Shown here piece after piece: positions 1,208-61,991 of a DNA stretch of 64,000 nucleotides; within the stretch, counting starts at the first letter, position 1, and every line of letters begins with the position of its first letter. Origin of the DNA: Chlorokybus atmophyticus. Lineage: Eukaryota; Plantae; Mesostigma and Chlorokybus algae. The stretch is taken from the NCBI GenBank assembly GCA_009103225.1, contig RHPI01002823.1:505104-569103 (forward strand). The letters run 5' to 3'. A model generated the notes under the pieces. That model worked only from the letters and a program-made list of their open reading frames with translations, was not told the origin of the DNA and searched no databases. The translations under genes and the position numbers were made by a program.

Positions 1208-1731
1208 TGTGACGGGAGCAATAATAATAGGGGTATTATTGCGACCTAAATAACACATTTTGTATGAATAAGTATTTAAATATGCTTATTTATACCTCTT
1301 TTCTGCGGTTCCTCGCTTATTAAAGGCTATGATGCTTTATCATAGCTTAAATAAGTCCCAATGGGTGTAGAACCGCTTATTCAAGCCTATTTAGTGTCAC
1401 ATTTGATATAATGTGATCACTATCTCGTTAGGTACCTTACGATAGGTATCTTTGGATAGGTACCTTATCGATAGGTACCTTATTTAAGCTGTGATTGGCT
1501 CACGCTAGATTTCCTAACTACCCTATCTGTAGGGTCGATGTCTAGTTGTGAGTTAATTATCGAGAGGTATATAGTTGATACTCTTGATATAAAAGGTCAC
1601 ATTAATCTGATGTGGGGACTTTCAGTTCTCTGCTCAGTGGCGGCCACGCCGTTGAAAGGCTTGTCATAGGCGGTGTGGGTGTTGGGGTAGAGGATTGAAG
1701 GGGCATCACCGGCGACGGTGGTGCTGTTACA
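1208..1731 (+). mobile_element. Solo LTR of the chromovirus family at 7360-14311
   Basis: TGTGAC...GTTACA, about 98% identical to the reverse complement of both LTRs at 7360-7880 and 13786-14311. Flanked by a perfect 5-bp TSD CTAGC (1203-1207, 1732-1736). Confidence 0.95.
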
Positions 1732-3977
1732 CTAGCACTATCAGAGCAACGCTTTTGGATGAGCGTGTACATCCATTGTTTAAACACGAATTGAAGCCAT
1801 TTGCTTGGCCACAACTTTTAAAAAGTTTGGCTCGCAATGCGGGTATAATGTAGCCATAAAATTGTATTGCAACCGTTAGCATGTTAGTCACCAAGTGTTT
1901 ATGCCGTATGCAAACGAATGTGCCAAGCGCACTCACCATAACACGACTACCTTAATCTTAGCAAACGCTGAGATGTGACTATTCAGATATGATTCGAAGC
2001 TCGAGCTCTGTTTCACGTGTACTATGTTGTTGAAATGTTGAGCTTGTTATGAATGAAGGAACACTTTTGGTTAATTATACGGTGGCTTACGGCATGTTGT
2101 TGATTGATTCAACAATTTTATATAAGCCTTACCAACCGAAAATTCATCTACAACGTTTTCAATTTACGTTGCGAAATTCGACATTGAGGCCTCAAGGCCG
2201 AATTCCCGATGTATAACGCTGTGATACAATGCTGCAGAGCTGGGTTGTAAAACTCGCATAGCGAGATACGTCATTAAAAAAACTTTAAAAAGCGTTGTTG
2301 TAATGAATAAAATTGATCACATGGGGCAACAATTAAAACATGAGAGTCTGATACACTCGTATGGTCCATTAATATACAAATATTTGTCAAAACTGCTAAG
2401 CGAAGCTTTAATTGTTGTGTTGATGGAATTCTGGTACATGGCTGGGCGAGAACAGGAGTGTTATACATTTATGCCTTAATAATGATAATGAATAAAGTGA
2501 GAAAATGCACGTACATCGGGGTTAGGCGGCGGCGGCTCTCTTGGCAAGGTTGGCGGCGGGCATTTCCTATCCCACCCCCTGACACACTTGGTCCTATCCT
2601 TACTTCCCCTTGATCCCCGCCCCTCACACCCCACCCACGCCGCTGATTGCAGCCTGGCGGCCCAAGAGAGGCGCAGACCGTTGATTTCACGAATCCACGA
2701 AAATCAACGGTCAGATCTTTATCTGCCGCAGTGAAGCAGTTTCTGGCGGGGGTTTGGCGGCAAGCGAGGCGGTGGCAGCAAGGTAGTGCTGGGGCGGTGG
2801 TTCGGAAATAGCTAGGGGTGACCCTAGTCCTCCTGGGCGTCCACCCCTTTCCTTAATCTAGCCAGCAGCACCGACATGCCAGGTTTGCGATGAGCTGGTG
2901 CTTTTTGGACTGCATTCAAGTTTGAGGAGAGCGGCAGTGCAGGGCAGGCAGGCCTTGGCTGTGTGTTGCTTCCCACCCCCTCCCCCCAAGGCTGCCCCAC
3001 AGCACACGGGTCAACCCGGGCAAACTTGAGGGAACCAGGAGCGGGGTTTAGTGCACTTAAAGTGTAGGGTAACTGATGAGGGATTGGGCTAGTTCAATCG
3101 CCCTCCTCCTTTTGCACTTGCCGCAGGTTGGGATCTACCTCACATTCGATCCTGCTGCCACCCTCTTCCCGTTCACCCTCCTCGAACTTTCTTTCAATAA
3201 TCGATTGTTATGGACGTCGACCATCCTTCTCCCCCGTCTTCTCCTCTTCCTCGCCGTGTTTTTTCCGGCATCGCTGAAGCTGTAGCTTACTGAAGATGTT
3301 TGAAATGCCAAAAAACAGCTTTTCAGTGTACGACAATTTGCGTATAGCAAAGGCCGTATATGAAAGTTAGGAGCTCAATATTGTGCAACCTTAACAAATC
3401 ATGTGCAACTTTCACGTTCTTTTTACTTTGCATGAGCGTTGCTATGTCATAATGAACCAAAAATTTCATTCCATTTGAGTGTCATTTGCAACCTCAACAA
3501 AAAATTTTAGGCAATACATGCGCAGAAGTGTACAACCACAAAGCTGTCACAACAGCTTCACAACTGTGCAATTGGAGTAGTGGCCGCCACGTCCTGCTGA
3601 GGGCTTGCGACAATAGGCACGCAGGTGCACTGGCTCCCCGCCATTGTAGCAAGTGCGAGAGTCAGTTGACCCCTAATGAAAGCGGCCTGCATAGGAGCGG
3701 CCTTGTAGCTGCTATGCCAGCACCTGATGCATAAGACCCAGAGTAGCGGGGGGGGGGGGGGGGGGGGGGGGNCTAGCAAGAATGTAGGCAGGCTTCGCCT
3801 TGAGTTTGGGCTGCACTGCAGACGCCTCTTTAATCGGCTTCTTTAGGCGCTCTGTTTCTGCATTATTCGCCGCTAGACGGTTTTTGGTGAGCTCCTTCAC
3901 CACCTTTCAACTATGCTTGGTGGCGATGTTCATGTGATAGATATGCGTGCACACCTCGTCCGACGCTGGTGCACAGA

Positions 3978-4511
3978 TGTAACGGGAAGGTACATTGAGT
4001 TACCATAAATCAATCATAAAAGCACCAAGTCTTTTATGGTCGAGTGGGCTGTGACATTGGTCGTCGGAGCTTGAGACCCGGGTTCGATTCCTGCCTTGCA
4101 CACGAATTCCGCGGTAGTTGTTTCTTGATCCAATAACATCGTAAATGGTCACTTTATGAATGCCATCATTGATGGGTCGCGACTTGCATAATGGCAGTCG
4201 CACCGAACTGACCAGTTCAGTCGGCGCGGCAGGGCGCGACCTGCCTGTCGCGGCGACGCGTCCTGTGGGGCCGGCAGCGGCGCGCTATGCGCGCGTTGAC
4301 CGGTATGGGCCTAAATTGGCCGGTCCTTGGGTGGTGGGGCCGGTAACCGACCCTAAATCAGATCCCTGGGAAGATTCCCCAGCTGATGAGCGCCAGCTGC
4401 CGAGGACGTCAGCGTTCTTGAGTGGGGGGGAATGTAACGGGAAGGTACATCAAGTTACCACAAATTGACCATAAAAGCACCAAGTCTTTTATGGTCGAGC
4501 GGGCTGTGACA
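3978..4511 (+). mobile_element. TRIM-like non-autonomous LTR retroelement A (79-bp LTRs)
   Basis: LTRs 3978-4056 and 4433-4511 (TGTAAC...GTGACA, 72/79 identical). TSD ACAGA (3973-3977, 4512-4516). PBS-like TGGTCGTCGGAGC 1 nt after the 5' LTR. PPT GAGTGGGGGGGAA at 4420-4432. No credible internal ORF. Confidence 0.92.
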
Positions 4512-4723
4512 ACAGAGAACATATGAGCAAGACTCGTTGCGAGCATTTATATTTAGGTTAAAGCCACAAGGTTAGCGCCAGGCGCACCCGCATTACCATC
4601 ACCACCCCACCTTTATATTTATATTATAATGCATATGCAAACCTGTTGCGTGCCTTTGACCTTGCTATAAGTACTCATAATGTGATTACAAAGGTGGACA
4701 TGCAAGGGTGTTGATACGGGCCC

Positions 4724-4818
<95 letters not shown>

Positions 4819-6915
4819 NGTGTATCTATATGATGCCGCTATGTAGATGGGCCAGCCTTTGTAAGCCGTGCTACCAAGCAGATGTAGCTCCATGCTCGTT
4901 TTCGGTAGCGGTTGCTTTGACTACTTCATCTCACGGCATTCTCAACACAACGAGACTTTCCAGGCGCAATCTTGCGCGGGCATGATTTTCCTCCTCCATT
5001 ATGCGGGTGGGTTTGCACACCAAACGGCGGGGGATATAGCAAGGTCACCGTGAATGGCCATCTCTCCAATAGTTTCGCCTTAAGCGCAGACTGTGTCTTT
5101 GCTCTAAATGTTGAAGCCTTCATTTTTCAATGGCCTCCAACACGGCATACGGCGTGTCGCACGATCCGGGGGGACCATCTGGACGAAGCAGTTGTTTACA
5201 GATGGCGTTTGATTTTTGTGTTTGCAGACAACAGCTGCCACCTTGTTAGAAAACGTTTGCCATCTCGAGGGGCAAGCTGTTGTCAATACTTTGCCAATTA
5301 CGCCAAGTTATTTGCATGATTCATTACATTACAACGTGGATGGTGCATTTACAATGTTGTCAAATGTTTGCCAACACGAAGCCTTTGCTGCTTGTAATTT
5401 GCATGTTTTTAGTGCTTACGTAAAACATGTGGTTGTCGTCATTGTTGGTAAACGTTGGCCAACACGCACAACTTAATGTTATCAATTGCGGATGCGCGCG
5501 TTGATAGTATGTTACGGCTTATGGAAGTGTTGTGCTACTTACAAGCGCATATATCCGTAACCTCGCACCTCAAGTATATATACCCCATGTATATATCTCA
5601 AGTACACGGTGGTTCCAGGGTTTTTCTTTCTATTATTGAAGCGTTGCACCACTCGACGACGTGTAGGAAAATTTTGCACCCTGCTAGCTCGGCGTTCAAT
5701 GAGCCACCACTTAAGGAAAAGGCTACCACTGTAGTACTGCGGGTTTTGTATGCACGACCTGTGGGTTACAGAGCGGCGTGCTATCAACTAGGCCACAGAG
5801 CTGACTTAATAACATTCAGCTCCTGTACAAAATATATTCTCAACCATCGCGCACAAGCTGCCGCCTGCCTGTCGGGCAATCGACACTTATGAGGCCGTCC
5901 TCTGCCAGCCCCTATTTTTCACCACATGGGTGCGCGGCTCAATGGGCAGGGTTCTTGGCTCCTTCCCCCTCACGCCTGCGACTGCTGCCGTGGGCTTCTT
6001 TAGGCTTCCTTCGCGTGGTGGACCTTTGCGACTGCGACTCTGTCTGCCCCTACACGGCTTCCCGAATGAGCCACTAACTGGACGAGCCAGCGGCGACTTC
6101 TGTCCTATGAGATTGCTGACCCTACATGACGTAACGGATTGGTCCATAAAGGGACTTTTTAAGACGGCCGTTACTATCAAGCAACATAAACCAAAGGCAA
6201 GCGGTCGACCAATAAGTACAATCGACGGCGGCCTGCCTGTGACGGCAACACCGCAATTTAAGGTAACGGCCCATTGTCGGTTATCCCATTTGCGCGATGG
6301 CGACCTTTCTGTATAGCAAATTAGTCACGATTTGGTCACATACAATGACGGCCGACCGTCGGTCGTACCCTGACCGTTGAAAAGTATGCGCGACGGCCTG
6401 CCTATTTTGGCAAGCCAGTCACCGTTAGTCCCTATCAGGTGACCTTATCGCGTTTATTAAGTGACGGCCGATCGCCGGTCGTGCACTTAACGCGGCGGCG
6501 ACCTACTTATTGTGAGTCAAGTATGATAAGCAAGTGACCGCCGGTCCCAAAAGGTCGGCAAGTCGGGACGGTGGTACCGGCCGGCAAGTCGAGACGCTGG
6601 TACAATGCAACCGCCGTACCATACCAATGGTACGATAGTGCCATTGCGACAATGGTACTTTTGTACCATTATAATAATACGATAATGCCGTTGCGAGTCA
6701 CGTTTCGACAACGCGTTTGAATAACTTGGGCTGCTCAAGTATTTCAAACGCTCAACGGCTTCAAGTTGAACAGAGCGTTGTGGGCGGCGGCGGCGGGGGC
6801 GGTGATGGCGGCGGCGGCGGCAACGGCTAACAGTAGGTGAGCTTGGTTGCTGTCTGGCGTTGTACAACGCGCAACACCGCATGCCATCTAACCACCCTCC
6901 TTGCCTTAGGGCGGC

Positions 6916-6968
6916 AAGGCCAGGCCAGGCTAGGCCAGACCAGGCCAGGCTAGGCCAGACCAGGCCAG
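6916..6968. repeat. Degenerate CCAGG/CTAGG/CCAGA pentamer array (20-bp unit duplicated)
   Basis: CCAGGCCAGGCTAGGCCAGA occurs twice in tandem, followed by CCAGGCCAGG. Confidence 0.8.
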
Positions 6969-8027
6969 GCGGCGGCAGCGGCGGCGGAGAAGGAACGGCG
7001 GCGGCGGAGCTGGAGCGGGCGGTGCAGGAGCCGCGGCTCAGTACAAGGGTAGTACTAGCAGCAGTACCTAAGGTAGTAGTAGCAGTAGTGGTAGTGGTAG
7101 CAGTAGTGGTAGTCTAGTTGTACTAGCAATAGTAGTAGCTCAGTTTATTACATTGTAACTTATTTATTTCTTTGTTTTTAATCATTTGTCACGCATTCTT
7201 GCACAGCTGATGACGACAATCACGTGTGACACCTAATCATGATTGAGCGATACCAGCAGGTACCTTTGAAGGTACACATCATTAACTTTAGGTACTTTAA
7301 GATACCTGACAATTTTGCTCAGTTAGCGTACGGTCGCCGGTACCTAACTGATAGGTACCTGTAACAGCACCACCGTCGCCGGTGATGCCCCTTCAATCCT
7401 CTACCCCAACACCCACACCGCCTATGACAAGCCTTTCAACGGCGTGGCCGCCACTGAGCAGAGAACTGAAAGTCCCCACATCAGATTGATGTGACCTTTT
7501 ATATCAAGAGTATATCAACTATATACCTCTCGATAATTAACTCACAATTAGACATCGACCCTACAGATAGGGTAGTTAGGAAATCTAGCGTGAGCCAATC
7601 ACAGCTCAGATAAGGTACCTATCGATAAGGTACCTATCCAAAGATACCTATCGTAAGGTACCTAACAAGATAGTGATCACATTATATCAAATGTGACATT
7701 AAATTGGCTTGAATAAGCGGTTCTACACCCATTGGGACTTATTTAAGCTATGATAAAGCATCATAGCCTTTAATAAGCGAGGAACCGTAGAGGTATAAAT
7801 AAGCATATTTATATACTTATTCATACAAAATGTGTTATTTAGGTAGCAATAATACCCCTATTATTATTGCTCCCGTTACATTGCCCCCCACTTAGGTTTT
7901 CAACGTCCTCGTTGAACTCAAGTTGATCAGGCTTGATTTTGAGTAATTGTAACTAGTGAGATAGCAGGAAATGACAGGGTGGTAATGAAACTGCACTGCC
8001 AGTCTGTCATAAAACCAAGCCCACAGT

Positions 8028-11000
8028 TTATGGGACAGGACATGAATCCCAATAAGCTCGAAGCAACTCGCGGCAGTGCGTAAGATGCCTGTCGGGCTCC
8101 CAACTGTTATGTTCCGGGCCATACCCTTTCCATTTCACCAAATAGCGAGTTGCGCGTCCTCGACTATTTAGCTTATGGTTCAATATAGCTTCCACCTCGT
8201 ATTCGAGCTCGCTGTCCACCTCAACTGGCGGTGGTGGAGGCTGTGTTCTACCGTCTGAGCGGTAAGGTTTCAACAAGTTCACATGGAACACGTTGTGTAT
8301 ACGCACACTTGGGGGCAATTGCAGTCGATAAGCGTGCGTACCAACTCTATCAGTGATAGAGAAAGGACCTAACCATCGGGGCAGCAACTTGCGAGCACCC
8401 GTACCTTTGATGGTTATGTTTTTTGCATTAAGCAAAACTTTATCGCCGACATCGAAAGTGGCCATTTTTCGATGTGTATCAGCATAAGCTTTCTGCCTGT
8501 CCTGTGCTTCTGACAGACACAGCTTGGCTCGAGCCAAATTTTCTTGCATATTAATGGCAAATTCCTTTGCCGCTGGTACAGTCAGGGCATTGCGAGGTAC
8601 ACGCAATGACGCTGGTGTGTTCGGGCGAATCCCATAATTCAAGAAAAATGGGGTTTCCTTTACACTTTCCTGCCACGCGTTGTTCACAGCGAACTCTGCC
8701 ATTGGCAAGTACCTGTCCCAATTAGCATGATTAGGAGCCACATAGTGGCGAAGCATTTCTTCCAGTATTTGATTAGCTCGCTCAGTTTGACCGTCCGTTT
8801 GCGGGTGGAAAGCAGTCGACATGCTTTGTTTTACCCCCAACAAATCACAGACTTCTCGCCAAAACTTGGAGACAAACCGAGGATCACGATCTGTGACAAG
8901 TTCACGCGGTACACCGTGAACGCGAAAGACCGTGGACACAAATAAGTGTGCCAAGTCCCGTGCACTTACAGTTGTGCAACACGGGGCAAAATGCACCATT
9001 TTAGTCGAACGGTCGACAAAAACCACAATAGCAATGTATTTAGCTGCTGTTTCAGGTAGGTCAGTAATCAAATCCATACTGACACTATCCCACTTTTGTT
9101 CTGGAATTGCCAATGGTTTAAGCAATCCCGCTTGATTTTGTCGTAGTGGCTTATTACGTTGACACACGTCACATGTGCGAACATATTGATCCACGTCAGC
9201 TGACATTGACGGCCACTGGTATAACTGTTGCGCAGATTTGAGTGTTTTGTGTTTCCCCAAATGCCCAGCATACGGCGGGTCATGCACTGAATGTAAGCAT
9301 TGCTTACGCAAGTCGCCCGAGTTGGGAATTGCCAACTGCTCCCCTTTATACCACAGATTGCTAACAGCAGTAAGCTGTTGCAAGTTGGTTTGACTGCTAA
9401 ACCAATCATCTGAGTTATAACCTGTGGACACTTCTTTCAAGAAAGGATCTTCAGGCTGTTGTACATTACGCGTACTTCGAGAGCGCGTAAGTGCCAAAAG
9501 AGCAGGGCTGCGACATAGTGGATCCGCCACATTGGTGCGACCAGGACGGTATTGCCAAGTGAAAGTGAAACGAGAAATGAATTCATTCCACCTAGCTTGC
9601 CGCCTCGACAGATTTTGTTGCGTATGAAAGAATGTGAGCGGGTTGTGATCAGTAATCACTGAAAACTCCACCCCTTCCAAGTAGCAACGCCATGTGCGCA
9701 GCGCGTGCACCACCCCGAGCAATTCCTGCTCAGTCTTTGTGTAATTACGTTCAGCAGGAATGAACTTTCAGCTTTCATATGCACATGGTCTGTCATCTTG
9801 TAGAAGGACTGCCCCACACCCAATGGTGGAAGCATCGCTGATCACCACAAAAGGCTTGGTGTGGTCGGGGAAGGCTAACACAGGGGCTTGTGTTAATGCA
9901 TCTTTAATGCGAGTAAAAGCAACCTCGTGTGCCTCCGTCCACACAAATTTAACATCTTTTCTTAGTAAAGATGTTAAAGAATTTGCCATGCCAGAATATG
10001 CTCGCATGAACTTGCGGAAATAATTGGCTAGCCCCAAGAAAGCACGTAACTGATGTACATCCTTTGGTGGCGGCCAATCCTTTACCGCACACACCTTTTG
10101 AGGATCTGGTTTCAATCCTTCTTTGCCAATCACATGCCCTAAAAAGGGTAGTTCATCCTTTGCAAAGTTGCATTTGGACAGGTAGGCATAGAATTTGTGT
10201 TCGCGTAACTTAGCTAGAACCAATTCCACATGTTTGTGGTGGTCCTCCCAAGTTTTGCTAAACACAACAATGTCATCTAGATATACCAGTACAAACTTGT
10301 ACAATTCATCAGCAAATACCGCGTTCATTGCTGTTTAAAATGTAGCTGGTGCATTTGTTAACCCGAATGGTAACACTTTATACTCAAAGTGTCCTAGTGG
10401 GGTGCGAAATGCAGTTTTTTGTATATCCGACGGGTGGATTTTGATTTGATGATAACCACTGGTCAAATCCAGCGTGCTGAACACTGTTGCACCTGACAGC
10501 TTATCAAACAAATCATCAATCCGAGGCAAAGGGTATCTGTTTTTCACAGTGACCTTGTTCAACGCACGGTAATCAATACACATGCGTAGCTTGCCATTCT
10601 TTTTGGGCACAAACAAAATTGGTGCACCAAAAGGAGATATGCTCTTTGTTATTAAACCTTTGTCCAATAACTCTTTGAGCTATTTTTCCATCTCCGCGTG
10701 TTCTAAGGGACTTAGCTTGTATATAGGCCGCCAAGGTGGCTTTGCCCCCTCCTCTAGCGGAATGGTATGATGTATGTTTCGATCGGGAGGCAACTCTGGG
10801 AGTTCATCCTGAAATACATCTGCGTATTGTTCTGTAAGTGACTGCACCACAGGGTCACTGATAGCCTGTTCAGCAGGTGTTTCCACATGTCGTAATTGCA
10901 GTAAGTATACTTCCTCACGTTTACGCATGCAACGTTTCAATTGCATAGCAGAGAGGAGCGGAACATTATCGCGAGGTATACATGCGAGTACAGATGCTGT

Positions 11001-12740
11001 CAAAGTCATCCTACGTTTCCCTTTACGAAGGGTGCACATATTGGCTCGAGAGTCTAATTGTAAACCTGCTTCAGTGTGCCATTGCTCCCCTAAAACAACA
11101 TCCACCCCGGGGATACTAATATCCACCACGATGAAGGCTGGTCGGGTTTTATGGCCATTAATAACAAAACGCCCTTTTACCTCTCCCATTGCATTGAGAG
11201 TGGAACCAGCAGCACGTACATATGACGTGACTGGTGTGAAAGGAATGTTATTACGTTTCACCCAAGCATTTTCAACAAAGTTATGGTTTGCACCAGTATC
11301 AATTAATGCTGTACATGGTGTACCCATAAGTTGACTCTCAAATCTCCATTCGAGTGGCACTGAGTGACCATCAAATGTAGCTAATGTCGGAGTGCCGTGA
11401 TTGGTAGCAGACTTGATAAAGATCACTTGCAACGGTGAAGCTCCTGTATCTTTGCGTGTGAGTTGCATGATTACTTCTCCCCCTTTCAACAATCGCGACC
11501 ACGGGCCATGATATCGAGGGATAACTACACATGCAGTGACAGCATGTTGTAATTGCAACTCGTGTAAGTGCTTAACAGCAGTTACTAATTCAGAGAATGG
11601 AACATTGATTAAAACACAACCGTTTGCATTTCTCAACACAGGTGGTGTGCTCATATCAGTCCATACATCTGATACATCACAAAGAGAGGAAACTTTATCA
11701 AGAAGTACAGAGTTTTTAAAGTCGTTCTGCTCGACTAAGCTACCAACCACGGACAATTCCTATTTCTTGTCTCTCTGCTGCTTGGCCTTCTGTGCATTCT
11801 GTTTTACATAGCACTTAGCCTCCCCATGACCTGTCTTCTTGCAGAAACTGCAAGTGATGATGGATTTGGCCGCATTGTAGGGGCCAGCAGGATGAAATGG
11901 TTTCGCCTTTTTCACAAAAGGTTTGTTGTCAGTGGCCGGGCGCTTTGCAGCTGAAACCGGGGCTGCCTCCTTTGCCGTGGTTTGCATGTTGGCGTGAGAG
12001 CGCTTTACACTGTCCACAGCAGCAACCATTTGCATCAGCATTGGTAAATCCGTCGAGGCCCACTCTTGCAAACTCGCGGGGTTGACGGCCACATGCTGCA
12101 CGAGATCAGTGTCCAAGCCACGTCTGAACATATCCAGCTGATCAGCATCACTGATAGGTAGTTTGCCAGCATTAATCTTGCTGACAAACGACTGAAAATC
12201 CTGGATATACTGCTGAACCGGACGTGCGTTCTGACGCACGTTGTGCAGCTGGTTGCGAGCAACCTGGGCGAGATCTGCGCCACCATAGCGCTGCTCCATG
12301 AAAAAGCACAATTGATTTACTTCCCGCCCGAGGTTTGTATCACGTTGCTTACGACGGTACCACTCTGCCAGAGCATCGTTTGGGATCAGCAACTCAGCCA
12401 CACGCAATTTCCCCTCCTCAAAAATGTGAAGGGAGTTGACATAGTGTCGCAACTTCACAAGCCAGTCGAAGATGGCCGCTTGCTTGTTGGGAACAAACTC
12501 GGCAGGACGAGCAAGTGCTTGAACAGGTGGACCATTGTCAGCACGTTGAAGACGCTCGATCATATTCAGAACACGTTTGCCTTCACCCATCTGCCCCTCC
12601 CAATCTCGCCCCATAAAGGTGGTGAGCTTTGAAACTTTTTCTGCCAATAGGAAGAGAAAGTTCACGAATGAGACAATTGCCTCACGAGGGTCCTGATCAT
12701 AGGTGCTAAGGAAATGCTCCATCAAGTCCTGATGTGTCAT
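8028..12740 (-). pseudogene. gag-pol polyprotein in one frame, broken by 4 in-frame stops
   Basis: Zinc knuckle CSFCKKTGHGEAKC, protease LIDTGA, RT YLDD, RNase H SDAS, integrase HHCC and DDE, GPF motif, chromodomain YEVEAILNHK...YLVKWKGY...NSWEP. ORFs 11760-12740, 10680-11756, 10335-10667, 9768-10328 and 8028-9722 are all in the same frame, separated by TAG (11760), TAG (10680), TAA (10335) and TGA (9768). Confidence 0.95.
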
Positions 12741-13099
12741 GCGAATAGAAAATCAGGGAATATAGAAGGTGATCTATCATCCACTGAAGCTTCCGCAGCT
12801 TTAGCAGCTTGAGACTCATCAGCTGCATCATCCGGATTCGGAATATCTTCCATGGATGGAAATTCCTCCTCACGGGAAGGTTGCTCTTTTTCCGAGCTCT
12901 CCCCTTTTTAAGTGGGCACCGAGTTTTCTTCCATTTGTCTGTAAAACAGGCAGAATGGGATGGTGAGAACCTCACCAATGGACCAGGTTCAACGAGAAGA
13001 TAAAAATGACCCCAAGTTGTAAAAGTCCCAAACAGAGTCCAAACCAGTCCCAAATTAGGAAAGGTTGGATCTGGAGTGTCACCAAACAGAACAAGTCTG

Positions 13100-13600
13100 A
13101 GTGGGACCAGAATGTCCTAACCCTGTGTTGTCCTCAACTAAGTCCCAATCTCCAGGCCGAAGCCAGAGGGGGAGGGTTTCAGACTAACAGGGTATTGGAA
13201 CAGATTGTCCTAGAACCTCCCCACAACTGTCCTAACCAAGTCCCGATCTCCAGGCCGAAGCCAGAGGGGGAGGGTTTGGGAACAGTTTGATTTGAAACTT
13301 ACGGACCCGGGTCAAATGACCCGGCAAAGCCGCTGGCAGGTCACAGGTACGTCACAGGCATGCAACAGGCAAGCCACAGGCATGCAACAGGCAAGCCGTA
13401 CGGTGACTAACTGTGACATGCACTGGCAAGCACAATGACAAGCTATCACCGCATGCAATGACAGGCAATCACTGCAAGCAATGATAGTGCACTGGCAAGC
13501 CACTGTGTGATGTGCATGAAAGTACACACGTGCACCTGGCAAGCACCAGGCAAGCAGCTGACAAGCAGGCAAGCAGGCAAGTCACCGACGTGTGATGGTA
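13100..13600. repeat. Tandem repeats in the chromovirus 5' leader
   Basis: 39-bp unit AGTCCC(A/G)ATCTCCAGGCCGAAGCCAGAGGGGGAGGGTTT at 13141 and 13239. 22-bp unit ACAGGCATGCAACAGGCAAGCC twice at 13354-13397. Many (C/T)GGCAAGC motifs. Confidence 0.85.
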
Positions 13601-14516
13601 CCTCACACGTGGAGAGGCCGCCTTTTTGATAGGTGGCTTCGACGTGGAGGTAGCGCAGGGAAGCGAACTTGAAGCTTGGGCTGCGTGGACGAATAGGAGG
13701 CCGCCGACGACGCCTTCTGATTGGCCGAAAGCAGGTCGCCGCCCCCTATAAGTACCCACGTCACCCCCCAGCTCCTGGATACCAATGTAACAGCACCACC
13801 GTCGCCGGTGATGCCCCTTCAATCCTCTACCCCAACACCCACACCGCCTATGACAAGCCTTTCAACGGCGTGGCCGCCACTGAGCAGAGAACTGAAAGTC
13901 CCCACATCAGATTGATGTGACCTTTTATATCAAGAGTATATCAACTATATACCTCTCGATAATTAACTCACAACTAGACATCGACCCCACAGATAGGGTA
14001 GTTAGGAAATCTAGCGTGAGCCAATCACAGCTCAGATAAGGTACCTATCGATAAGGTACCTATCCAAAGATACCTATCGTAAGGTACCTAACGAGATAGT
14101 GATCACATTATATCAAATGTGACACTAAATTGGCTTGAATAAGCGGTTCTACACCCATTGGGACTTATTTAAGCTATGATAAAGCATCATAGCCTTTAAT
14201 AAGCGAGGAACCGTAGAAAAGAGGTATAATTAAGCATATTTAAATACTTATTCATACAAAATGTGTTAATTAGGTAGCAATAATACCCCTATTATTATTG
14301 CTCCCGTTACAGTACCGGTCAGTTATTTGTTTGTTAGGTCAAGTCCCCTTTGCTTAATTGTTGAGTACCCGATAGGCACCTATTAATTAGGGTCAGTCCC
14401 TTTATGCAGACGGCCGCCAACTAATGGTGACGGCCGTTATGCTCAGGTCCCTGTATTGAGATCGCCGGTAGACTGAAGGTCGACAGTCCAAATGAGTATC
14501 CTCAGGTGCACGACCG

Positions 14517-15192
14517 TTGCCAAAATTCAATCGGCCGGCAGGGGAAGCATTTTGCGACGTGTGCCCGGACTTCGATTGGCCTTTCTTTTGGCGCTTTCTG
14601 CAAAAGATTCGTGCTCTGAGCAAGCACCGCTCTCTTCAATGGCTACTTGCGCACGGCGCGATTTACACATGCAACCGGCTCCGCTGCATGCACCCTGAGC
14701 CGGCATGTCTCACGTGCGGGGAGGAAGACTTAGAGTCTCCCTTCCATCTCTTCTTCGGCTGCCATGCCGCTTCGACTCTTTGGTCCTCTCTTCGGCACCT
14801 CATCTAGCGCATGGGGGGCTCACTCCAATAGTTTTTGAGTCTGTGCGTGTTTGGGCAGTGTCCTGGGTTGTCTCCTTCTCACTTCTCACATGTTTGGTCC
14901 CCTCTACGCATGCCTCGCCCTTTGGTGTCTTTCGTGCTTTCGCTACTCTATCCGCTACGTTAAGGACCCTCCCCGTGCACGCTTTGCTTTCCTCCTTCGC
15001 CGCGCAGGCTCTGTCGGGCTAAGAAGGACTGGCTACATGTGGTGTCCTCTCCTCTTGTGGAGGGTGCCCGCTCTTCAGCTCTCTCCACATTCCTCTCCAC
15101 ATGAGGAGCAGGAGCAGCCCCTTGCTCCCTTGCTGCTCATCTCCCCCACCCTGAAGTGGTCTGGCATTCTTCTTCATCTAGCCAGAAGATAA
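14517..15192 (+). mobile_element. 5'-truncated L1/Tx1-like LINE fragment (ORF2 C-terminal zf-RVT region), degenerate
   Basis: W-rich zf-RVT pattern QWLLAHGAIYTCNRL...CLTCGEEDLESPFHLFFGC...LW, followed by LWCLSCFRYSIRY in another frame. Contains stops and frameshifts. Confidence 0.75.
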
Positions 15193-15286
15193 AAAGACTA
15201 CATCTTAGAAGACTGAAGACAACATCTTCAAACGCTGAAGACTCGAGGCTTCGCAAATGAAGACTAAAGATGGACTGAAGACTGGC

Positions 15287-15794
15287 TGTTACGGACGACT
15301 AAATGATAACGCCACAATGGCCACGAAACACACTTCGTGCTTTTGTGGCCTAATGGTTTGTTACATTGGAATCGGAGCTTGAGACCCAAAAGGTTCTGAG
15401 GTCAAAACCGCCTGACGGCGGTAGACCAAGAAGGACTTTTGAGGTTGTTGTTATCGATTCATAATGGGTCGCGCGTCAATGCGCGACTTGCCGGACGGCA
15501 GTCAGACACTCTGACGCGTCGCGCGTACCTGGAGCCGCCGCTGGGTAGTACCGCGCGACTTGCCTGACGACGACTGACAGTCGGTCACTCAGCGGCGCAA
15601 TGCGCGCCGCGACTGCTTAGTGATATTTGCAAAAATTGCTTCCACTGCTTAGTGACGAGAAACCCTGTAAAAACTCACATCTGATGAGGACATTAGATAC
15701 CCAAGTGGGGGGGAATGTTACGGACGATTAAATAATAACGCCACAATGGCCACAAAACACACTTCGTGCTTTTGTGGCCTAGTGGTTTGTTACA
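15287..15794 (+). mobile_element. TRIM-like non-autonomous LTR retroelement B (79-bp LTRs)
   Basis: LTRs 15287-15365 and 15716-15794 (TGTTAC...GTTACA, 75/79 identical). TSD CTGGC (15282-15286, 15795-15799). PBS-like TGGAATCGGAGC. PPT AAGTGGGGGGGAA at 15703-15715. Confidence 0.92.
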
Positions 15795-17256: not shown

Positions 17257-18305
17257 GGCGTGATGGGCGTAATGAATCTGCGCTTATAGCATGTATATGC
17301 TCTTAACGTTCAAGAGCATATTATGCTCTTAGTCGCCAAGAGCTTAACTCTGCCAAGAGCATACGATTTTTGAGGATAACAGTATGCTCTTACACAAGAG
17401 TAGACTATATAGTCTACCCCCGTTGAAAGACTTCGGTTTATGAGGATAACCCCGTTGAGGTCATAGATTTGCAAAAGACCAATGGTTTTACAGGCAAGTA
17501 TCATCGGTTAGTGGAATAGTTTTGTACGCAATAAGACTACAACGGAGGGTTAAAATTTTAAGTGAGCTCAGTCTTGATACGGGGGAATACCTTGTTGATG
17601 GCATGCTTATCTCAATTATAAGCATAAACATATTACAAGACTCATATATAGTTACATACATAATCAATTTACTGTTGACTATTATCAATTTATGCCGCGT
17701 AAAAATGTAATAACATGGCTTACGGTTATTTCGCAATACCCCTCTTAGGAAGAATATGTATTATGTACAGAATAAAAGAGTAAATATTATTGTAAACGCC
17801 AAGGGAATAACCCCGTTGATGGAATGAAAGCTGAAAGATACACGTGATATTTATAGCGGAGGTAGACTGTACAGGTAAGGTACATAGTTACTTAATTATA
17901 CTAAAACATTTATTGTACAGTCTACTCTTTTTGAGAGCATATGATTGATTTTTGAAGATACTTTGCTTCTGGCGGGGTTATGCTCTTGGCGATAAAGTGC
18001 ATAATATGCTTTTAAACATTAAGAGCATTTGTATGCTATGAAGCAGTTTAATACGCCCATCACGCCCATTACATCACGCGCATTATGTCACGTCTATTAT
18101 GCCATCACGCTCGTTACGTTGATTACGCGTTGCACTGTACCCTTCACGCCTTGTGCATCACACTCATTACGCCTGATGAAAAACCCGTAACGCGCCACTC
18201 CCTCAATGTTAAGAATATGCGCCTTTACATTTGCAAAAATGTCATAAAAAATAATAATATGCTCTTCGCGGTTAGACATATTCTCTTAAGCACTGACATT
18301 TGCCT
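17257..18305. mobile_element. Foldback/long-TIR DNA element with nested palindromes
   Basis: Inverted arms of about 155 bp: 17257-17417 vs 17914-18066, starting with the perfect 15-bp pair GGCGTGATGGGCGTA/TACGCCCATCACGCC. Repeated ATGCTCTT/AAGAGCAT motifs. Perfect 18-bp palindrome GTAGACTATATAGTCTAC at 17400-17417. A related copy lies at 49905-50318. Confidence 0.65.
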
Positions 18306-18765
18306 GTAGCATCGTTGGTGATCTCAACACGTATGCTACAAGCGGGGTTTCTCTTGGAGCAAAGTCTTTTACTCCAAGAGAGCAAGCGGGGGTGGACTGT
18401 ACAACGCACACATGACGCATGTGTGCACCATGCATGTTGTGCTCAAAATGAATGGATTCTTTTATTCATTCGCATATACTTTGTGCAATTGTATGATATG
18501 GGGATGTGCTTTGGAAGGTTGAGATTTGTTTGACACAAATCGAATGGCCGATAGCTGATATCGTCGCATAGCCAATGAGAGGCAGGCGGGCTGCTCAGTA
18601 TGCGCGGCAGGCATGTGGTTTCGGGTGCCGTGTGTGATGGCCCTCAGTGCGCGTGATGTGTCTTTGTGCCCTAATGCCGGCCTCCCGGCCGGCCGGCCGG
18701 CCGGCCCTATCCCGCCCAATCAGCCGCACCGCTAGTTTACAAAGATTTCATGACACTACAATATA

Positions 18766-19405: not shown

Positions 19406-22400
19406 ATGGCTGCGGCGCTGGGCGAGTACACTTGGATCTTCGGCGTGGCGACGGTGCTGTCGTTCGTGTCCGCATTCGGCATTGGCGCCAATGACATAGT
19501 GAGTGTGATATCGACGATGATGATCTTCTTGACAAAAGAGAGTACTGAGAATGATGATCATCATCTCTGCCAGTCATCAGCTGCACGCATGGACTTTACA
19601 CACATTGTTCATGAACAATGATGAGCGGGGATGGTCAATACTCCAAGCAGTCAAGCACGCGAGAATTGGTGATGGACTTCTCCTGTTTATTCTGTCTTGT
19701 GAAATTGACCTCACGTAGTCTGCAACAAGACAGGCAGTCATGGTTTTGCAACATTAGCGTCAGCTAGTGTGTACCTAGATTGAACTTTGGAAACAGCCTT
19801 TATCCCTCATTTGACCTCAGTCTGTGCAATCAACACGCATACCTGCAAGTTGCCTGACTTGTTCTTGCCGCCGTGCAATAAGGTATTCCTAACACGACAC
19901 TCACATTACCACACCTGCACCCAACCACCATGCACATGCGCGTGTGCATGCGCACACACGCACACATGTATCAGCGCCCATGCACACACTCGGGCATGTG
20001 CAAGCATGAACGCGTGCACTCACAGGCCTACGAACGCGCATGCACACGCGCTTGCACACATACAGACACATATGCACAGGCACAGGCACGCACAGATGCA
20101 CACTGTGCATACGCTCATATAGGCAGGCACACACCCATGCACACAGACATGCACCATTACACGTTTGTGTGTGCTTGCGTGTGAGTGCGTGTGTGCAGCT
20201 GCATGCACACACAAACGAGCATGCCCACACGCACAGACACACGCAGACACAGGTACAGGTGCGCAGACACTTTCACACTCGTGCGTGCACACACATGTAC
20301 ATGAGCGTACACACACGCGTGCGCAAACAAACGTAAATACACACACGCATGCCCGCACCCATTCCCGCACTTGCAGCCGCACATGTGCAGGCACGCACAA
20401 GCACGCACGCACGCACGCATGCACGCATACACACGCACATGCACACGCACACGCACACTCGCCCGCACCCCACCCCACCCAACAACTCTGTCTCCCCCCT
20501 TCAGGCCAACGCCTTCGCTTCCTCCGTTGGTTCCAAAGCCCTCACCATGCCTCAAGTCATCCTCATCGCCTCCATTTGCGAGTTCAGCGGCGCCGTGTTG
20601 CTGGGTGCGGGCGTGACCGACACGATCAAGTCCTCCATCGCGCGCGCGGACGCCTTCTCCACAGACCCACCTCTCCTCATGTACGGCATGTTGTGTGTCC
20701 TCTTCGCGGCAGCCTTTTGGGACAACCTCGCGTGTCACTTGGGTCTACCCGTGAGCACGACGCACACAACTATAGGTGGTGTTGTTGGTATGGTGGTGGT
20801 CATGAAGGGGTTTGGTGCGGTTGTGTGGGCACGCGGGACACACGTGTTCCCTTATTTCGAGGGAGTGGCGGCTATAGTGGCATCGTGGGTTGTGTCTCCA
20901 CTCTTAGCGGGTGGTGTTGTGGCTATTGTGTTCTTGTTGTTGCGCACGTACGTGCTTCGAGCAGAAGACTCGTTCGATAAAGCGCTTCGCGTGCTCCCTT
21001 TTTTCATCGGAGTCACCTTTTTTGTGGTGACTCTCTTCATCATACAGACTGGGAATAAGAATAAGACCTGGCACGCGTCCGATATCGTCGCCGCAGGGAT
21101 ATCGGCGGGGGTGGCTGCGGGGTTGGGAGGGATATCGGCGCTGTACATGCCGAAACTAGCGCAGTATGTGGATTCAGAAGAGCAGAGGGAGGCGGCGATA
21201 TCCACGATTGGCAGCGATGTCGAAGAGATGAAACTACTGCACGGGTCCGAAGAACAGGCGCCTGCTGGCAATATCAATGCTGCTGATGTGAAGATGTCGA
21301 TGGGGTTGGATGAGAGTGGGTTGAGGAAGTTTTGGAAAAGGTTTATGGAGGGACCGCTTGGCAACAATGCCATTATGCGCATCATCCTTCACGTAAGCCA
21401 TAGATACAGGCATGCATAGTGGTTTGTACACTGCATGCACAAGTATTTGCATACCACTGGCGCGGTGCACTGCGTGTGCGTTGGAGTGGGCACGTGCACG
21501 CGCCCACGTGTGTCAGCAAGTGCATGCGTGTGTGCCTATCGTTGCGCGGCGCACACACCCACACTTGCTCGAGCACATGCACATGCACGCTGGCTCGTGC
21601 ATGCATGGGTGTGCGTGTGCACGCATGCGTACATTACCTTGACGTCTTCAGTACCCAGATACCAATCCCAACATGTTTTGACACGCAGGGTGCTCGTTAC
21701 AAGATACACGACGACCTCATCGACGATTCCTCCTGGGCCGCGTCGTACTCGAGCGCCGAGGAGTTTGATGCGAGGACCGAGAGACTGTTCCGTTCCCTGC
21801 AGGTGTTCTCCGCGGTCGCCATGTCGTTCGCGCACGGGTCCAACGACACCGCCAACGCCGTGGGACCCTACTCGGCGATATACCAGATATGGAGGACGGG
21901 AGAAGCGGACCCAAAAGCGCACGTGAGTGGGGAGTTGTGGGTGTTGTTGTTTGCTACCACCATCAAGAGCATCACAAAGCAGTATTCGTTACACATGCAC
22001 ATGCAGCGTACAGCTCACTGCATGCAAAGTAGACACACGGTGCATACCATCTTTGTGCAGCATCGCACACGGTAGCTGACACAAGCACGTGCACGCGCGC
22101 AAGGTGTATGTGTGCCTGTGCTTTGTTTACAGACACACACAGTCGCAGACCCACAGACACACACACGCAAGTTCTGGGAGACACCCGCACTCATACATGC
22201 ACTGTCACATGCACGCACGCATGCATGCACGCAGCGTATGTGTATACGCGAGGGTGCGTGCATGCTCAACGCACAGAGCTTGCCACTGCAACAAGGACAA
22301 AAGCAAGTATGCTGTAAAATGCACTTACAGCAGCTTACCATCCACTTCAGGTGCCTGTCTGGATCTTGGCCATGGGGGGAGCGGGCATCGTGGTCGGCCT

Positions 22401-22895
22401 CGCCACGTAAGTAGTAGCAATCATCCCACATGCACTTTGGTGTCAGGTCAATTGCTGTGACAATCAGACACGCGCACACACACGCACACGGACAGGCACT
22501 GTTGTGCATGTCTGTGCCCGCCTGTGCGTGCACATGCATGCATGCGATCATGCGTGCGCGCGTATGCCAACACCTCCCCTCTCTCCCTCATCAGTTTCGG
22601 CCACAAGATCATGTCGGTGCTGGGCGTCCAGTCCGTCCGCCTCTCCCACTCCCGCGGTTTCTGCCTCGAGCTCTCCTCCGCCTTCTCCGTCGCGTTCGCC
22701 TCGCGCTGCGGCCTTCCCGTCTCGACCACGCAGACCGTCGCGGGCGCCATCGTCGCGATCGGGATGTTCGAGGGGGCGCGGGAGGGAGTCAACTGGAGGG
22801 TGATGGGGAAGGTGGTGGCGGGGTGGGGAGCCACGATCGTCGTCGCGGGAGCCGTGGCGGGGACGTTGGCGGGGATTGGGATGCACTTCTTTTGA
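19406..22895 (+). CDS. PTB: PiT/PHO4-family sodium/phosphate symporter, 5 exons, about 523 aa
   Basis: Exons 19406-19498, 20505-21392, 21689-21922, 22351-22406 and 22595-22895 join in frame with GT-AG sites. Both PiT signature motifs are present: GANDI|ANAFASSVGS and HGSNDTANAVGP, plus LGLPVSTTH and GLPVSTTQ. Confidence 0.93.
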
Positions 22896-27439: not shown

Positions 27440-28160
27440 TGTCGGCATACTTGCCTTGTGTATCTTGCAGTGTTCTTCACACTGGGTAAAGCCACTAGCA
27501 TGTCTCTCTTTCTATCATGGTGTGTGTTACTCACCGACATGCGAGAGGCTGATCGCCAGTTACCAGCATCTGCGTATCTATTCGTCTTGGACTATCAGTG
27601 ACAAGCGTTATGTAGTCGACTAATTGCTCAGCAGCGATTGATACGATCAACTCGCGCACCCATGCTCATGCCAATTGTGCTGGTCCGTGCATACGAAAGC
27701 CACATGTGCCCATCCGCGGTCTTTGTGGACACTGGACAGGCTACAGGAGTCTCGTTGTTGTTATCACTCGGCGTGCCCACACCGGCAGTCCATGCACAGT
27801 GCGGCACGTGCAATAAGAAGCAGTCTTCCACCCGACACCAAAACCACCAATTGGTAACCCATGTTGTCCACAGTGCTTGCCAGCTGCACTTGGAGATCCA
27901 CACTAGCACATCCATCCATCATGCAGTGCATGAACAGCATCACAATACCTGAACCGTTGTGGGAATACGTGTACAGAGTGTGCGGTAGTATCTCCCAGCT
28001 TGCTGCTATACATCACGCTCAGTTCCAATCGAAAAGAAGAGGATTGCACGCTTGTAGGCTACTGATAAGGGAACGGAAGCCTATCTCACGTACAAAGAAA
28101 CCTGTTACTTTGTTGTACTGATCGCAACTGAAACGTCTCGTCCCCTCCTTGCAATGGTAG
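27440..28160 (+). repeat. Diverged direct duplicate of about 32050-32700 (3' part of the Ig-repeat gene region)
   Basis: Collinear shared blocks, e.g. ATCAACTCGCGCACCCATGCTC (27646 and 32199), GCACGCTTGTAGG and AACGGAAGCCTATC. Minus-strand translation EGTRRFSCDQYN vs EGTVRFSCDQYN. Confidence 0.8.
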
Positions 28161-31703: not shown

Positions 31704-32649
31704 GTGACCTTTTGGCTTGGCTGATGCTGCTGGTTCACTTCACTGCCACGTTACACGCTAGTGAGATTTGATAATGGTACACCAACGTGGAGTTTATATA
31801 GATGAGTGTACTCTCGCTTGCAGTATGCGAATGGTATTGACTGACTACTTTTGTAGCACGTGTGTGTGCTAAGATGAGTGTGCGTGAACATGGATGTTGA
31901 TGTGCCCATGGTGGTATATGTAATATGCAGCATGCAAGGACAAACTTACCACTGTACACTCCCTGTACTTCAAGCCATGTCGGTGCTGCAAGCGTGTTAA
32001 TCTCCCGGCATGATTGCTGCAACATCAGTTGAGTTGCCGATAGCATAATACTCATTCCAAACAAGCATGTCCGGGTGTGGTGTTCTTGGCACTGGGTAAG
32101 GCCATCACCACAGCACCAGCATTTGCATACCCAGTCGCCTTGCATTGTCAGTGAGCTGGTGCTGTCATTTGACTACTTGCCCAGCAGCCATTGAGTCAAT
32201 CAACTCGCGCACCCATGCTCGTGCCTCTTGTGCTGGTCCATGCATTCGCAAGCCACAAAATGCCCGTGCTGCCACTTCAAAGGCTAAGTGTCTCGTTGTT
32301 GTCATTGAATAGCATGCCCACACCAGCTCGAGCAGTGTGACAGGTGTTGACATGAAGCCGTACTTCACGTTAATCTGACCACCATCCAGTATCCCTGTTG
32401 TCCACAGTGATCTGCAGCTAGCTAGAGACAAACTGTCCACAACATTCTCAAGCAATCAGTTGAATCGCCATCATGGATATACATGAACATAGTGCAGTGC
32501 AATAGTACCTCCCATTCTGCTGCTATACATGACGCTCGAATCCAATCAAGAAGAGGAGAATAGCACGCTTGTAGGTTTGCTGCTAAGGGAAGAAAACGGA
32601 AGCCTATCACCTAAGCTTACGTAGTACAACAGCTTGCTATCTGTATCAC

Positions 32650-49108: not shown

Positions 49109-49904
49109 CGCAGCCTGCCCGTGCTAAGAACACAGCCGTCCAACCCCACCACCCAACCCCACCAGCACCACCTAACTGCCAGCGCTACACAGTGCAGTGC
49201 CCTAGTGCCACAGTGCAACACTGCATGCCAGCCTGCAGAACGAGAGGCTGGGCAGAGGGGCAGGGCAGAGGGGCCTTGCCAGATCATCGGCGACAAGGGT
49301 TTGCAGTTGAGGCTACGGCACAATGACAGCAAGAAGAGGAGGGGGAGGCGGAGGAGAGAGAACAGGCGGAGCGGGGGATGAAGAAGTAGGGAAGTAGGGG
49401 AAGGACAGACGGAGAGGGAGAGAGGGAGGGAGACTGTGGGAGAGGGGGAGAGAGGGAGGGAGAGGGAGTGTGCTGCATGCTGCCTGCTGCTGTTACGCTG
49501 CACCTGGACTACCGTGGTTGACGCTGCTGCTCGTGTGTTGCACAGGTAATCAACCAACAATACGCATGTATGCATGCCTAACGGGGAGGTCTAGAGTAGG
49601 GTAGTGTGGTAGGTAAACATGCAGTCAATATAGCCCGATGGTGGTGTATGTGACTGTGTTTGCATGCTGGTTGGTATGCTATGCTGTTATCACGTCATGC
49701 ATGTCGCCAATTGTCTCGCGCATATCCTTTACATGCAGCACAAGCAACCATCAGTACACATAGCACACGCAACCGTCAGTATACATAGCACACGCAGCCA
49801 TGAGCAGTGCTGATTATAGTCTACCCTCGCTATGAGACTTCGCTCCAATAGAATAACACCGCTGATAGCATAGAAAATGAGATTACCAAACGAAATACAT
49901 GCAC

Positions 49905-50318
49905 ATGTTGGTGCCTAAGAGAATATGCTTGACCGCGATCATCATATTTTTATTTCATGTAATTCTTGCAGGTTTTAGTGAGGGATATTCCAAGGTCGGG
50001 GGAGTAGCGTGTGACAAGTGTGGCATAACGCGTAATGCGTGTGGTGAATATGGCGTGATGGGTAAGATGTGACGCGTAATCAGCGTGACGAATGCGATAG
50101 TGCAATGAGCATGACGTAACACGCATGATGCAATGGGCGTGATAAAGCCGCGCTTATATATTCATGCTATTTACATTCAAATGCATAATATGCTCTTGAC
50201 CGTCAAGAGAATTACCTCGCCAAGAGCATACGATAGCGGAGGATAAACAATATGCTCTTGAAGGGGGTAGATTGTAGCAGCATAGCACACACCGCTTACC
50301 AACATACTTGAGGTCATA
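49905..50318. repeat. Dispersed diverged copy of the foldback element arm at 17900-18305
   Basis: Matches the reverse complement of 17900-18305, e.g. GTGCCTAAGAGAATATG vs GTGCTTAAGAGAATATG, GCGTAATCAGCGTGACG vs GCGTAATCAACGTAACG, plus GCATAATATGCTCTT and GCCAAGAGCATACGAT. Confidence 0.75.
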
Positions 50319-61919: not shown

Positions 61920-61991
61920 GGGTCACTGGTCTAGTGGTATGATTCTTGCTTAGGGTGCAAGAGGTCCCGGGTTCAATTCCCGGGTGACCCC
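61920..61991 (+). tRNA. tRNA-Pro(AGG): tRNA-Pro(AGG)
   Basis: Acceptor stem GGGTCAC/GTGACCC, D arm TGGTCTAGTGG, anticodon arm CTTGC-TTAGGGT-GCAAG, T arm CCGGGTTCAATTCCCGG. Confidence 0.95.

Follow-up and report, generated by a model that had tools for sequence, protein, structure and literature searches.

Miniature terminal-repeat retrotransposons (TRIMs) with tRNA-type boxes are known from the Helenus/TRIMp3 group. In the accessible portions of Kojima 2024 (PMC10886601), these elements are shorter than 1 kb, carry a primer binding site (PBS), a polypurine tract (PPT) and a target site duplication (TSD) of 5 bp, and contain A and B boxes proposed as an RNA polymerase III (Pol III) promoter. 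Helenus is defined there by tRNA-derived sequence in the long terminal repeat (LTR); among the LTRs compared both boxes lie within the LTR, usually with a T run after them, the fungal members with 5-bp TSDs are tied to Copia, and Table 1 of that paper holds no alga. Cassandra, as described in the available text of PMC10886601 and PMC7215508, is a TRIM of the plant lineage whose Pol III promoter is internal, with a short R region (18 bp) and a conserved LTR secondary structure; its promoter is of the 5S type and lies entirely within the LTR, and its helper is given as unknown. Algal TRIMs appear in the accessible part of Gao et al. 2016 (PMC4717578), from Chlamydomonas (6 subfamilies) and Volvox (5), and for 278 of the 289 TRIM subfamilies counted there no related autonomous element turned up. 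Here we describe two TRIMs, TRIM-A and TRIM-B, and a neighbouring chromovirus within a 64,000-nucleotide stretch of the alga Chlorokybus atmophyticus (contig RHPI01002823.1, positions 505,104 to 569,103, forward strand), hereafter the window.

Both TRIMs share the listed features of Helenus, and the internal part of Selaginella Helenus-1_SMo opens with the same PBS 13-mer in unbulged form. In contrast to Helenus, the LTR holds the A box alone, with the T run in front of it, and the B box sits in the internal region; neither a B box nor tRNA-derived sequence was found in the LTR. T-arm segments of the TRIMs match tRNA genes, with no tRNA match from Rfam. TRIM-A and TRIM-B may thus be a variant of Helenus/TRIMp3 without box B in the LTR. 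They resemble Cassandra as plant-lineage TRIMs with a predicted Pol III promoter, a predicted short R and a conserved LTR secondary structure, except that the promoter would not be confined to the LTR, and their signals point to a chromovirus rather than to Copia. Rfam gave no 5S match in the TRIM LTRs, the feature by which Cassandra and Ajax are recognised, and no ribozyme family in the TRIMs at E<=10, so the hammerhead expected of a retrozyme was not found. With moderate confidence, and judging from the sequence evidence given below, we read the two elements as sister gene-less TRIMs, likely copied by chromovirus-like enzymes and predicted to be transcribed by Pol III from a tRNA-type promoter that would be split at the LTR edge. 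The literature searched, with Repbase, Dfam and most subscription papers outside it, gave no account of a TRIM whose A/B promoter is split in this way.

Results

As shown in Table 1, the A-box consensus pattern was matched at one common position in every TRIM LTR. The window contains 8 matches against a chance mean of 1.78, made up of the four TRIM LTRs, the host tRNA-Pro gene and 3 others, and a putative Pol III A box is present near the end of all four TRIM LTRs, 20 nt from the LTR end. The B-box element is found at element position 105 in TRIM-A and 114 in TRIM-B, in both cases past the 79-bp LTR and the PBS. Only two exact matches to the B-box pattern occur in the window, one in TRIM-A (4081) and one in the tRNA-Pro gene; when one mismatch was allowed, the count was at chance level. 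Strict A+B pairs were restricted to the 5' junction of TRIM-A (spacing 45) and the tRNA-Pro gene (44), the relaxed B box added the 5' junction of TRIM-B (spacing 54), and a pair of any kind arose in 1 of 200 shuffles. The LTR/PBS junction of the chromovirus has neither an A box nor a B box.

The internal segments around the B boxes resemble tRNA T arms. TRIM-A 4070-4091 is identical at 22/22 positions to one tRNA-Glu gene, which had itself been retrieved using 19 of those bases, and its match in the sense orientation was reached in 0/200 shuffles. The 19-mer at 4073-4091 is present at 9 viral loci. In 6 cases it lies at the T arm of a tRNA-Glu or -Ala gene called by ARAGORN; the remaining 3 look like the 3' ends of transfer-messenger RNAs. 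The TRIM-B segment matches Met tRNAs in sense with a score of 32 (0/200 shuffles for the segment behind the PBS, 2/200 for a wider one), and the match includes ACCCAAA, which lies outside the search pattern. The same slot is thus occupied in the same orientation by different T arms, Glu-like in TRIM-A and iMet-like (initiator methionine) in TRIM-B. Of seven sequencing runs, none of them recorded as RNA, four (X1-X4) contain part of the window, and related copies were collected as contigs from these four and matched onto each TRIM. The X1 copies of TRIM-B read GGTCGAAACC, which is nearer the tRNA and retains the G at the T/A position of the B box; at 15404, both X1 contigs that cover the position have G, again nearer the tRNA. 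Among the TRIM-A relatives, variable sites numbered 1/87 in 4015-4101 compared with 28/331 in 4102-4432 (p=0.016), and TRIM-A has no internal T4 run.

Both elements have the features of TRIMs: a length below 1 kb, two short TG...CA LTRs, a PBS, a PPT, a TSD and no protein, the sole open reading frame of at least 95 codons (4160-4465) having no Pfam match. On recheck, the element coordinates, the 79-bp LTRs and the 5-bp TSDs of the first-pass annotation were borne out. The LTR pairs are identical at 72/79 positions in TRIM-A and 75/79 in TRIM-B, and all 11 differences within the two pairs are transitions. A bulged PBS is common to the TRIM-B relatives and nearly all TRIM-A relatives (A at 4063 in TRIM-A numbering), with the unbulged form in a single X2 copy of TRIM-A. 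Self-priming as in Tf1/Tcn1 was considered and rejected, as no more than 5-6 bases of the PBS pair with the left arm of the LTR hairpin and the TGG that opens the PBS lies 1 base past the LTR; half-tRNA priming of the Copia type did not fit the TRIM PBS. A 16-mer at the PBS has two exact matches in the window, one in each TRIM, and 4 matches with <=3 mismatches against a chance mean of 0.23. In viral contigs the 16-mer was found at 5 loci, none with TRIM-like context, and metagenome scans for the TRIM junction returned 0 loci. Directly before GAGGAC, both TRIMs contain CTGATGAG (4385-4412, 15680-15698), which resembles half a hammerhead core; no GAAA follows it within the internal region.

The TRIM-A contigs numbered 82 in X1, 122 in X2, 2 in X3 and 0 in X4, several with different flanks. 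For TRIM-B there were 10, 7, 1 and 1, some of which are chromovirus ends or TRIM-A copies, and relatives with different flanks were found in X1, X2 and X4. Both therefore behave as dispersed multi-copy families, as TRIMs do. Two TRIM-B relatives start with TGTCACGGGA and have a U3 that is 1-2 nt shorter (loose ends at 15304 and 15741). U3 indels in TRIM-A contigs of depth <5 are possibly errors; TRIM-A contigs of high depth have no LTR indel. The LTR length proposed as fixed therefore holds in the high-depth TRIM-A contigs and varies slightly in TRIM-B relatives: 79 bp is the usual length and is not strictly fixed. Back-joints of 428-455 nt in some contigs have the order internal end, LTR, PBS, as in tandem TRIM arrays or collapsed LTRs. 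One X1 contig links 3977 to 4572 without TRIM-A and was not scored as an empty site. N gaps and long G/C runs near the solo LTR and TRIM-A (913-1029, 3749-3772, 4725-4819) are likely assembly artefacts that leave the elements untouched.

The two TRIMs had been described as having unrelated LTR cores, a view that the alignments overturn. The 3' LTRs of TRIM-A and TRIM-B align with a score of 63, compared to a shuffle maximum of 43 (0/2000); LTR positions 11-69 alone gave 0/2000 and positions 11-58 alone 6/2000. The internal regions show weak homology (1/500 shuffles local, 4/500 global), BLASTN matched the two elements over positions 54-102 at 80%, and read placement put a TRIM-B copy on TRIM-A 4031-4078 unprompted. 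The LTRs also share a hairpin of 13 predicted pairs, 2 of them compensatory, with both sides differing between the families. Its folding z ranges from -2.9 to -4.1 in three of the four TRIM LTRs and is -0.3 in the decayed 5' copy of TRIM-A. LTR position 55 is the first of the T4 run in both TRIMs, and the A box opens at position 60. By these sequence comparisons TRIM-A and TRIM-B are sister families with homologous LTR cores; because they share an ancestor, they are not two unrelated families, and their equal LTR length is largely due to descent, which disposes of convergence on 79 bp under a length constraint. The constrained part of the LTR is the module formed by hairpin, T4, A box and end, not the overall length.

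The LTRs of the neighbouring chromovirus (526 and 521 bp) align with 514 matches, 7 mismatches and 5 gaps, and in the element profiles matched Gag, protease, RNase H, reverse transcriptase (RT), integrase and a chromodomain at the integrase end (PF00385, E 1.7e-17). A TAG separates gag from pol, and 3 more in-frame stops lie in pol (10682, 10337, 9770). Named near matches come from Haematococcus and Closterium (46-51% identical). The layout GAG:stop:PROT-RT-RH-INT, the 5-bp TSD, a length within 5.3-11.4 kb, the algal host and the chromodomain likely place the chromovirus in the Chlamyvir clade. In the available portion of Neumann 2019 (PMC6317226), Chlamyvir elements are algal, measure 5.3-11.4 kb, have a 5-bp TSD in 95% and a stop between GAG and PROT in 80%, and their PBS is undetermined in 50% and of the Met type in 41%. 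The copy here agrees with that account and with the part of Novikov 2012 (PMC3350952) available in host, chromodomain, TSD, size and gag stop, and in a tRNA-type PBS often without exact tRNA fit; unlike Chlamyvir, its pol is broken. The chromovirus LTR has a U5 hairpin of its own at 13793-13814 (minus strand), 7 nt from the LTR end and unrelated in sequence to the TRIM hairpin, and its last 79 nt fold with z -1.5. In the left flank (7240-7359) an (A)GGTACCT motif recurs that is also found repeatedly within the chromovirus LTR and that contains the TSD GTACC; the chromovirus may have inserted into an older element related to it.

The TRIMs and the chromovirus have in common the terminal TGTNACGGGA, the TGT(G/T)ACA end, an imperfect iMet-like PBS and the 5-bp TSD. 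As the first-pass annotation claimed, the LTRs of TRIM-A and the chromovirus start with the same 10 nt, the LTR ends and PPTs agree, and all three elements have iMet-like PBS variants, with one bulged base in the TRIMs and two extra bases in the chromovirus. The 16-mer is exact in both TRIMs and absent from the chromovirus PBS. The TRIM-B copy in the window starts with TGTTACGGAC instead of TGTNACGGGA; the start of its relatives, TGTCACGGGA, is 9/10 like the chromovirus. At the end of the interior, over the ~30 bases from GAGGAC through the PPT, TRIM-B matches the chromovirus at 24/31 positions ungapped, and both TRIMs gave 0/2000 shuffles; read placement put high-depth chromovirus contigs, which occur in runs X1 and X2, on TRIM-B 15686-15723. 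The GAGGAC motif before the PPT is also found in the unrelated animal TRIM Ajax, and the motif therefore points to Gypsy generally. The TRIM LTR cores match the chromovirus LTR only at chance level (51/500 and 59/500 shuffles), so the TRIMs are not its deletion derivatives; alignment is limited to the termini and the 3' internal end. The 11 pairs in Gao et al. 2016 (PMC4717578, accessible part), with 79-98% LTR identity, are deletion derivatives, whereas here the cis signals alone match. A weak, diffuse local match between the TRIM-A interior and the chromovirus leader (1/100 shuffles) was not accepted.

Overall, termini, PBS, PPT and TSD make a chromovirus-type (Gypsy) helper very probable. 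Mobilisation by the family of the neighbouring chromovirus, as originally proposed, goes further, and we lean only modestly towards that family as the helper. That the three elements lie so close together, in 12 kb, most likely reflects a transposable element nest, because a decayed L1-type fragment (zf-RVT, PF13966, E 8.5e-10, at 14496-14804, plus strand) sits between the chromovirus and TRIM-B.

Table 1. Positions of the TRIMs, the chromovirus and other features in the 64,000-nucleotide window
Feature	Position	Strand	Details
TRIM-A	3978-4511	+	534 bp; TSD ACAGA
TRIM-A LTRs	5' 3978-4056; 3' 4433-4511	+	79 bp each
LTR hairpin common to TRIM-A and TRIM-B	4010-4043	+	3' arm contains T4 run (4032-4035) and A-box start
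TRIM-A A-box match	4037-4047 (also 4492-4502)	+	LTR positions 60-70
TRIM-A PBS	4058-4070	+	likely tRNA-iMet; one bulged base
TRIM-A variable-loop/T-arm-like segment	4070-4091	+	internal, behind PBS; perfect B-box match 4082-4090
TRIM-A GAGGAC motif and PPT	4402-4432	+	PPT 4420-4432; aligns with chromovirus 3' end
TRIM-B	15287-15794	+	508 bp; TSD CTGGC
TRIM-B LTRs	15287-15365; 15716-15794	+	79 bp each
TRIM-B A-box match	15346-15356 (also 15775-15785)	+	LTR positions 60-70; T4 upstream at 15341-15344
TRIM-B PBS and 16-mer common with TRIM-A	15367-15387	+	16-mer 15372-15387
TRIM-B iMet-like variable loop/T arm	15384-15413	+	sense; degenerate B box 15400-15408, G at T/A position
TRIM-B GAGGAC motif and PPT	15686-15715	+	PPT 15703-15715
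Chromovirus	7360-14311	-	6952 bp; TSD GTACC; likely Chlamyvir clade
Chromovirus PBS	13771-13784	-	iMet-like, two extra bases; no A/B box at junction
Solo LTR, same family as chromovirus	1208-1731	+	TSD CTAGC
Host tRNA-Pro(AGG) gene	61920-61991	+	internal reference for both boxes, their spacing and the terminator; T5 ~12 nt downstream
PHO4 phosphate transporter (host)	20337-22892		
Tab2-like (host)	38891-39454		
Sir2 (host)	44781-45143		
eRF1-domain protein (host)	58032-58316		

Elsewhere in the window, a non-coding repeat with ~85-bp inverted arms, which resembles a miniature inverted-repeat transposable element, is present in two copies (17280-18360 and 49815-50276) that have diverged (68-77%). 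A direct duplication of ~470 bp (27618-28085 and 32171-32608) is 68% identical, with no Pfam match in the open reading frames scanned. Among the host genes, one exon of PHO4 gives a 100% match to a protein with the label jgi/Chlat1, the tag of Chlorokybus atmophyticus.

Discussion

In the reading that we favour, TFIIIC would bind the internal B box together with the A box in U5, and transcription would start at about LTR position 41-52, a range predicted from tRNA leader lengths. The LTR end and the PBS would occupy the A-B spacer, whose sequence is free. Pol III would then run for ~450 nt and stop at or past the T4 of the 3' LTR (positions 55-58), which would result in an R region of ~9-18 nt, similar to the 18 bp reported for Cassandra. 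Initiator tRNA may prime at the bulged PBS and the PPT may prime the plus strand; U3 would be restored from the 3' LTR, strong-stop DNA would include the A box, the B box would be copied along with the interior, and a chromovirus integrase would recognise TGTNACGGGA...TGT(G/T)ACA and insert the DNA with a 5-bp TSD. For Pol III, bioRxiv 10.1101/2024.08.28.610035 describes dominance of the B box and a spacer that is free in sequence and ranges from 31 to 93 bp.

Several results weigh against this split promoter or limit how far the evidence for it reaches. Rfam gave no tRNA match at either TRIM junction, the TRIM T-arm segment folds no better than shuffles, and the B box of TRIM-B is non-canonical. 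TRIM-B also has an internal T4 (15437-15440) that is a T5 in one X1 contig, and the host tRNA control terminates at T5, so that a TRIM-B copy with the internal T5 could terminate early; the T4 in the 5' LTR lies a few bases past the predicted start and would have to be read through. The conserved block 4015-4101 was chosen post hoc and contains the integrase attachment (att) site and the PBS, which are conserved regardless, while 4073-4101 alone (29 nt) is variant-free with a chance expectation of ~8% at the background rate. The tRNA comparison sets were retrieved by patterns taken from, or suspected for, the TRIM segments. On the helper side, LTR divergence is 1.3% in the chromovirus compared to 5-9% in the TRIMs, and the chromovirus copy is thus the younger; because of its three pol stops and younger LTRs it is not itself the helper, and only its family could be.

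Two other accounts of the tRNA-like stretch were weighed. In one of them, which we consider improbable, the elements are sister TRIMs of the ordinary kind, with transcription by Pol II or by read-through; the stretch would extend the site to which the primer anneals, and the A box would result incidentally from the hairpin and att site. Ty1 and Ty3 have boxes that pair with the T arm or the anticodon arm of iMet; the stretch here directly adjoins the PBS. The T loop is near-palindromic and the TRIM-A segment pairs antisense with the Met tRNA T arm at a score of 24, a value reached in 25/200 shuffles, compared with 0/200 for its sense match. In antisense, the 16-mer common to the TRIMs can be aligned with one Met tRNA at its anticodon arm (score 34, 3/200 shuffles), but the TRIM-B segment fits iMet in sense only (0/200 versus 140/200 antisense), and the tRNA-like spacing of the A and B boxes would be left unexplained. 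The tRNA-like pieces could instead be decaying relics of SINE (short interspersed element) or tRNA capture, or of an RT template switch onto packaged tRNA, that acted as a promoter once or never. The lack of an Rfam tRNA match and the degenerate B box and internal T4/T5 of TRIM-B speak for such decay; we nonetheless rate it a little lower still, as no variant in the A or B box is listed for those TRIM-A contigs, out of 206 from three runs, that overlap the boxes, where other internal sites vary, and the A box is retained at one position in both families.

The original proposal, in which a length constraint led two TRIM families of separate origin to the same 79-bp LTRs and precisely this chromovirus family mobilises both, appears very improbable. 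Both LTRs are indeed 79 bp despite offsetting alignment indels, the termini and PPT fit this chromovirus family, and X1 and X2 contain high-depth contigs of it; against this, the TRIM LTRs and junctions are homologous and relatives differ by 1-2 nt in U3.

A broader form of the split-promoter reading can be put forward only tentatively, and we regard it as doubtful: that the TRIMs represent a type of Pol III retroelement that recurs and has not been described, in which the LTR boundary would split the promoter, the att site and PBS would lie in the A-B spacer, the B box would be exchangeable and only the 5' junction would be active. TRIM-B would then have swapped a Glu-like for an iMet-like T arm, perhaps when RT switched onto the packaged primer tRNA at the common ACCC, and of the two hairpin copies in the RNA only the 3' one would be whole, so that T4 would terminate there and not at the start.

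The inference of a helper is by itself ordinary, and the likely split Pol III promoter is the more interesting feature. Among LTR parasites driven by Pol III, validation exists for Cassandra only. The described tRNA-type elements have their promoter within the LTR, and hence in both LTRs and every solo LTR. With the split promoter, the B box lies only behind the 5' LTR, and the 3' and solo LTRs would therefore be silent; if true, such a promoter gives one-sided transcription from a 79-bp LTR. Elements of this kind would escape screens in which LTRs are matched against tRNAs. The system in which this could be tested is small: two sister families with different B boxes and a candidate helper with matching cis signals, in an early-branching streptophyte host.

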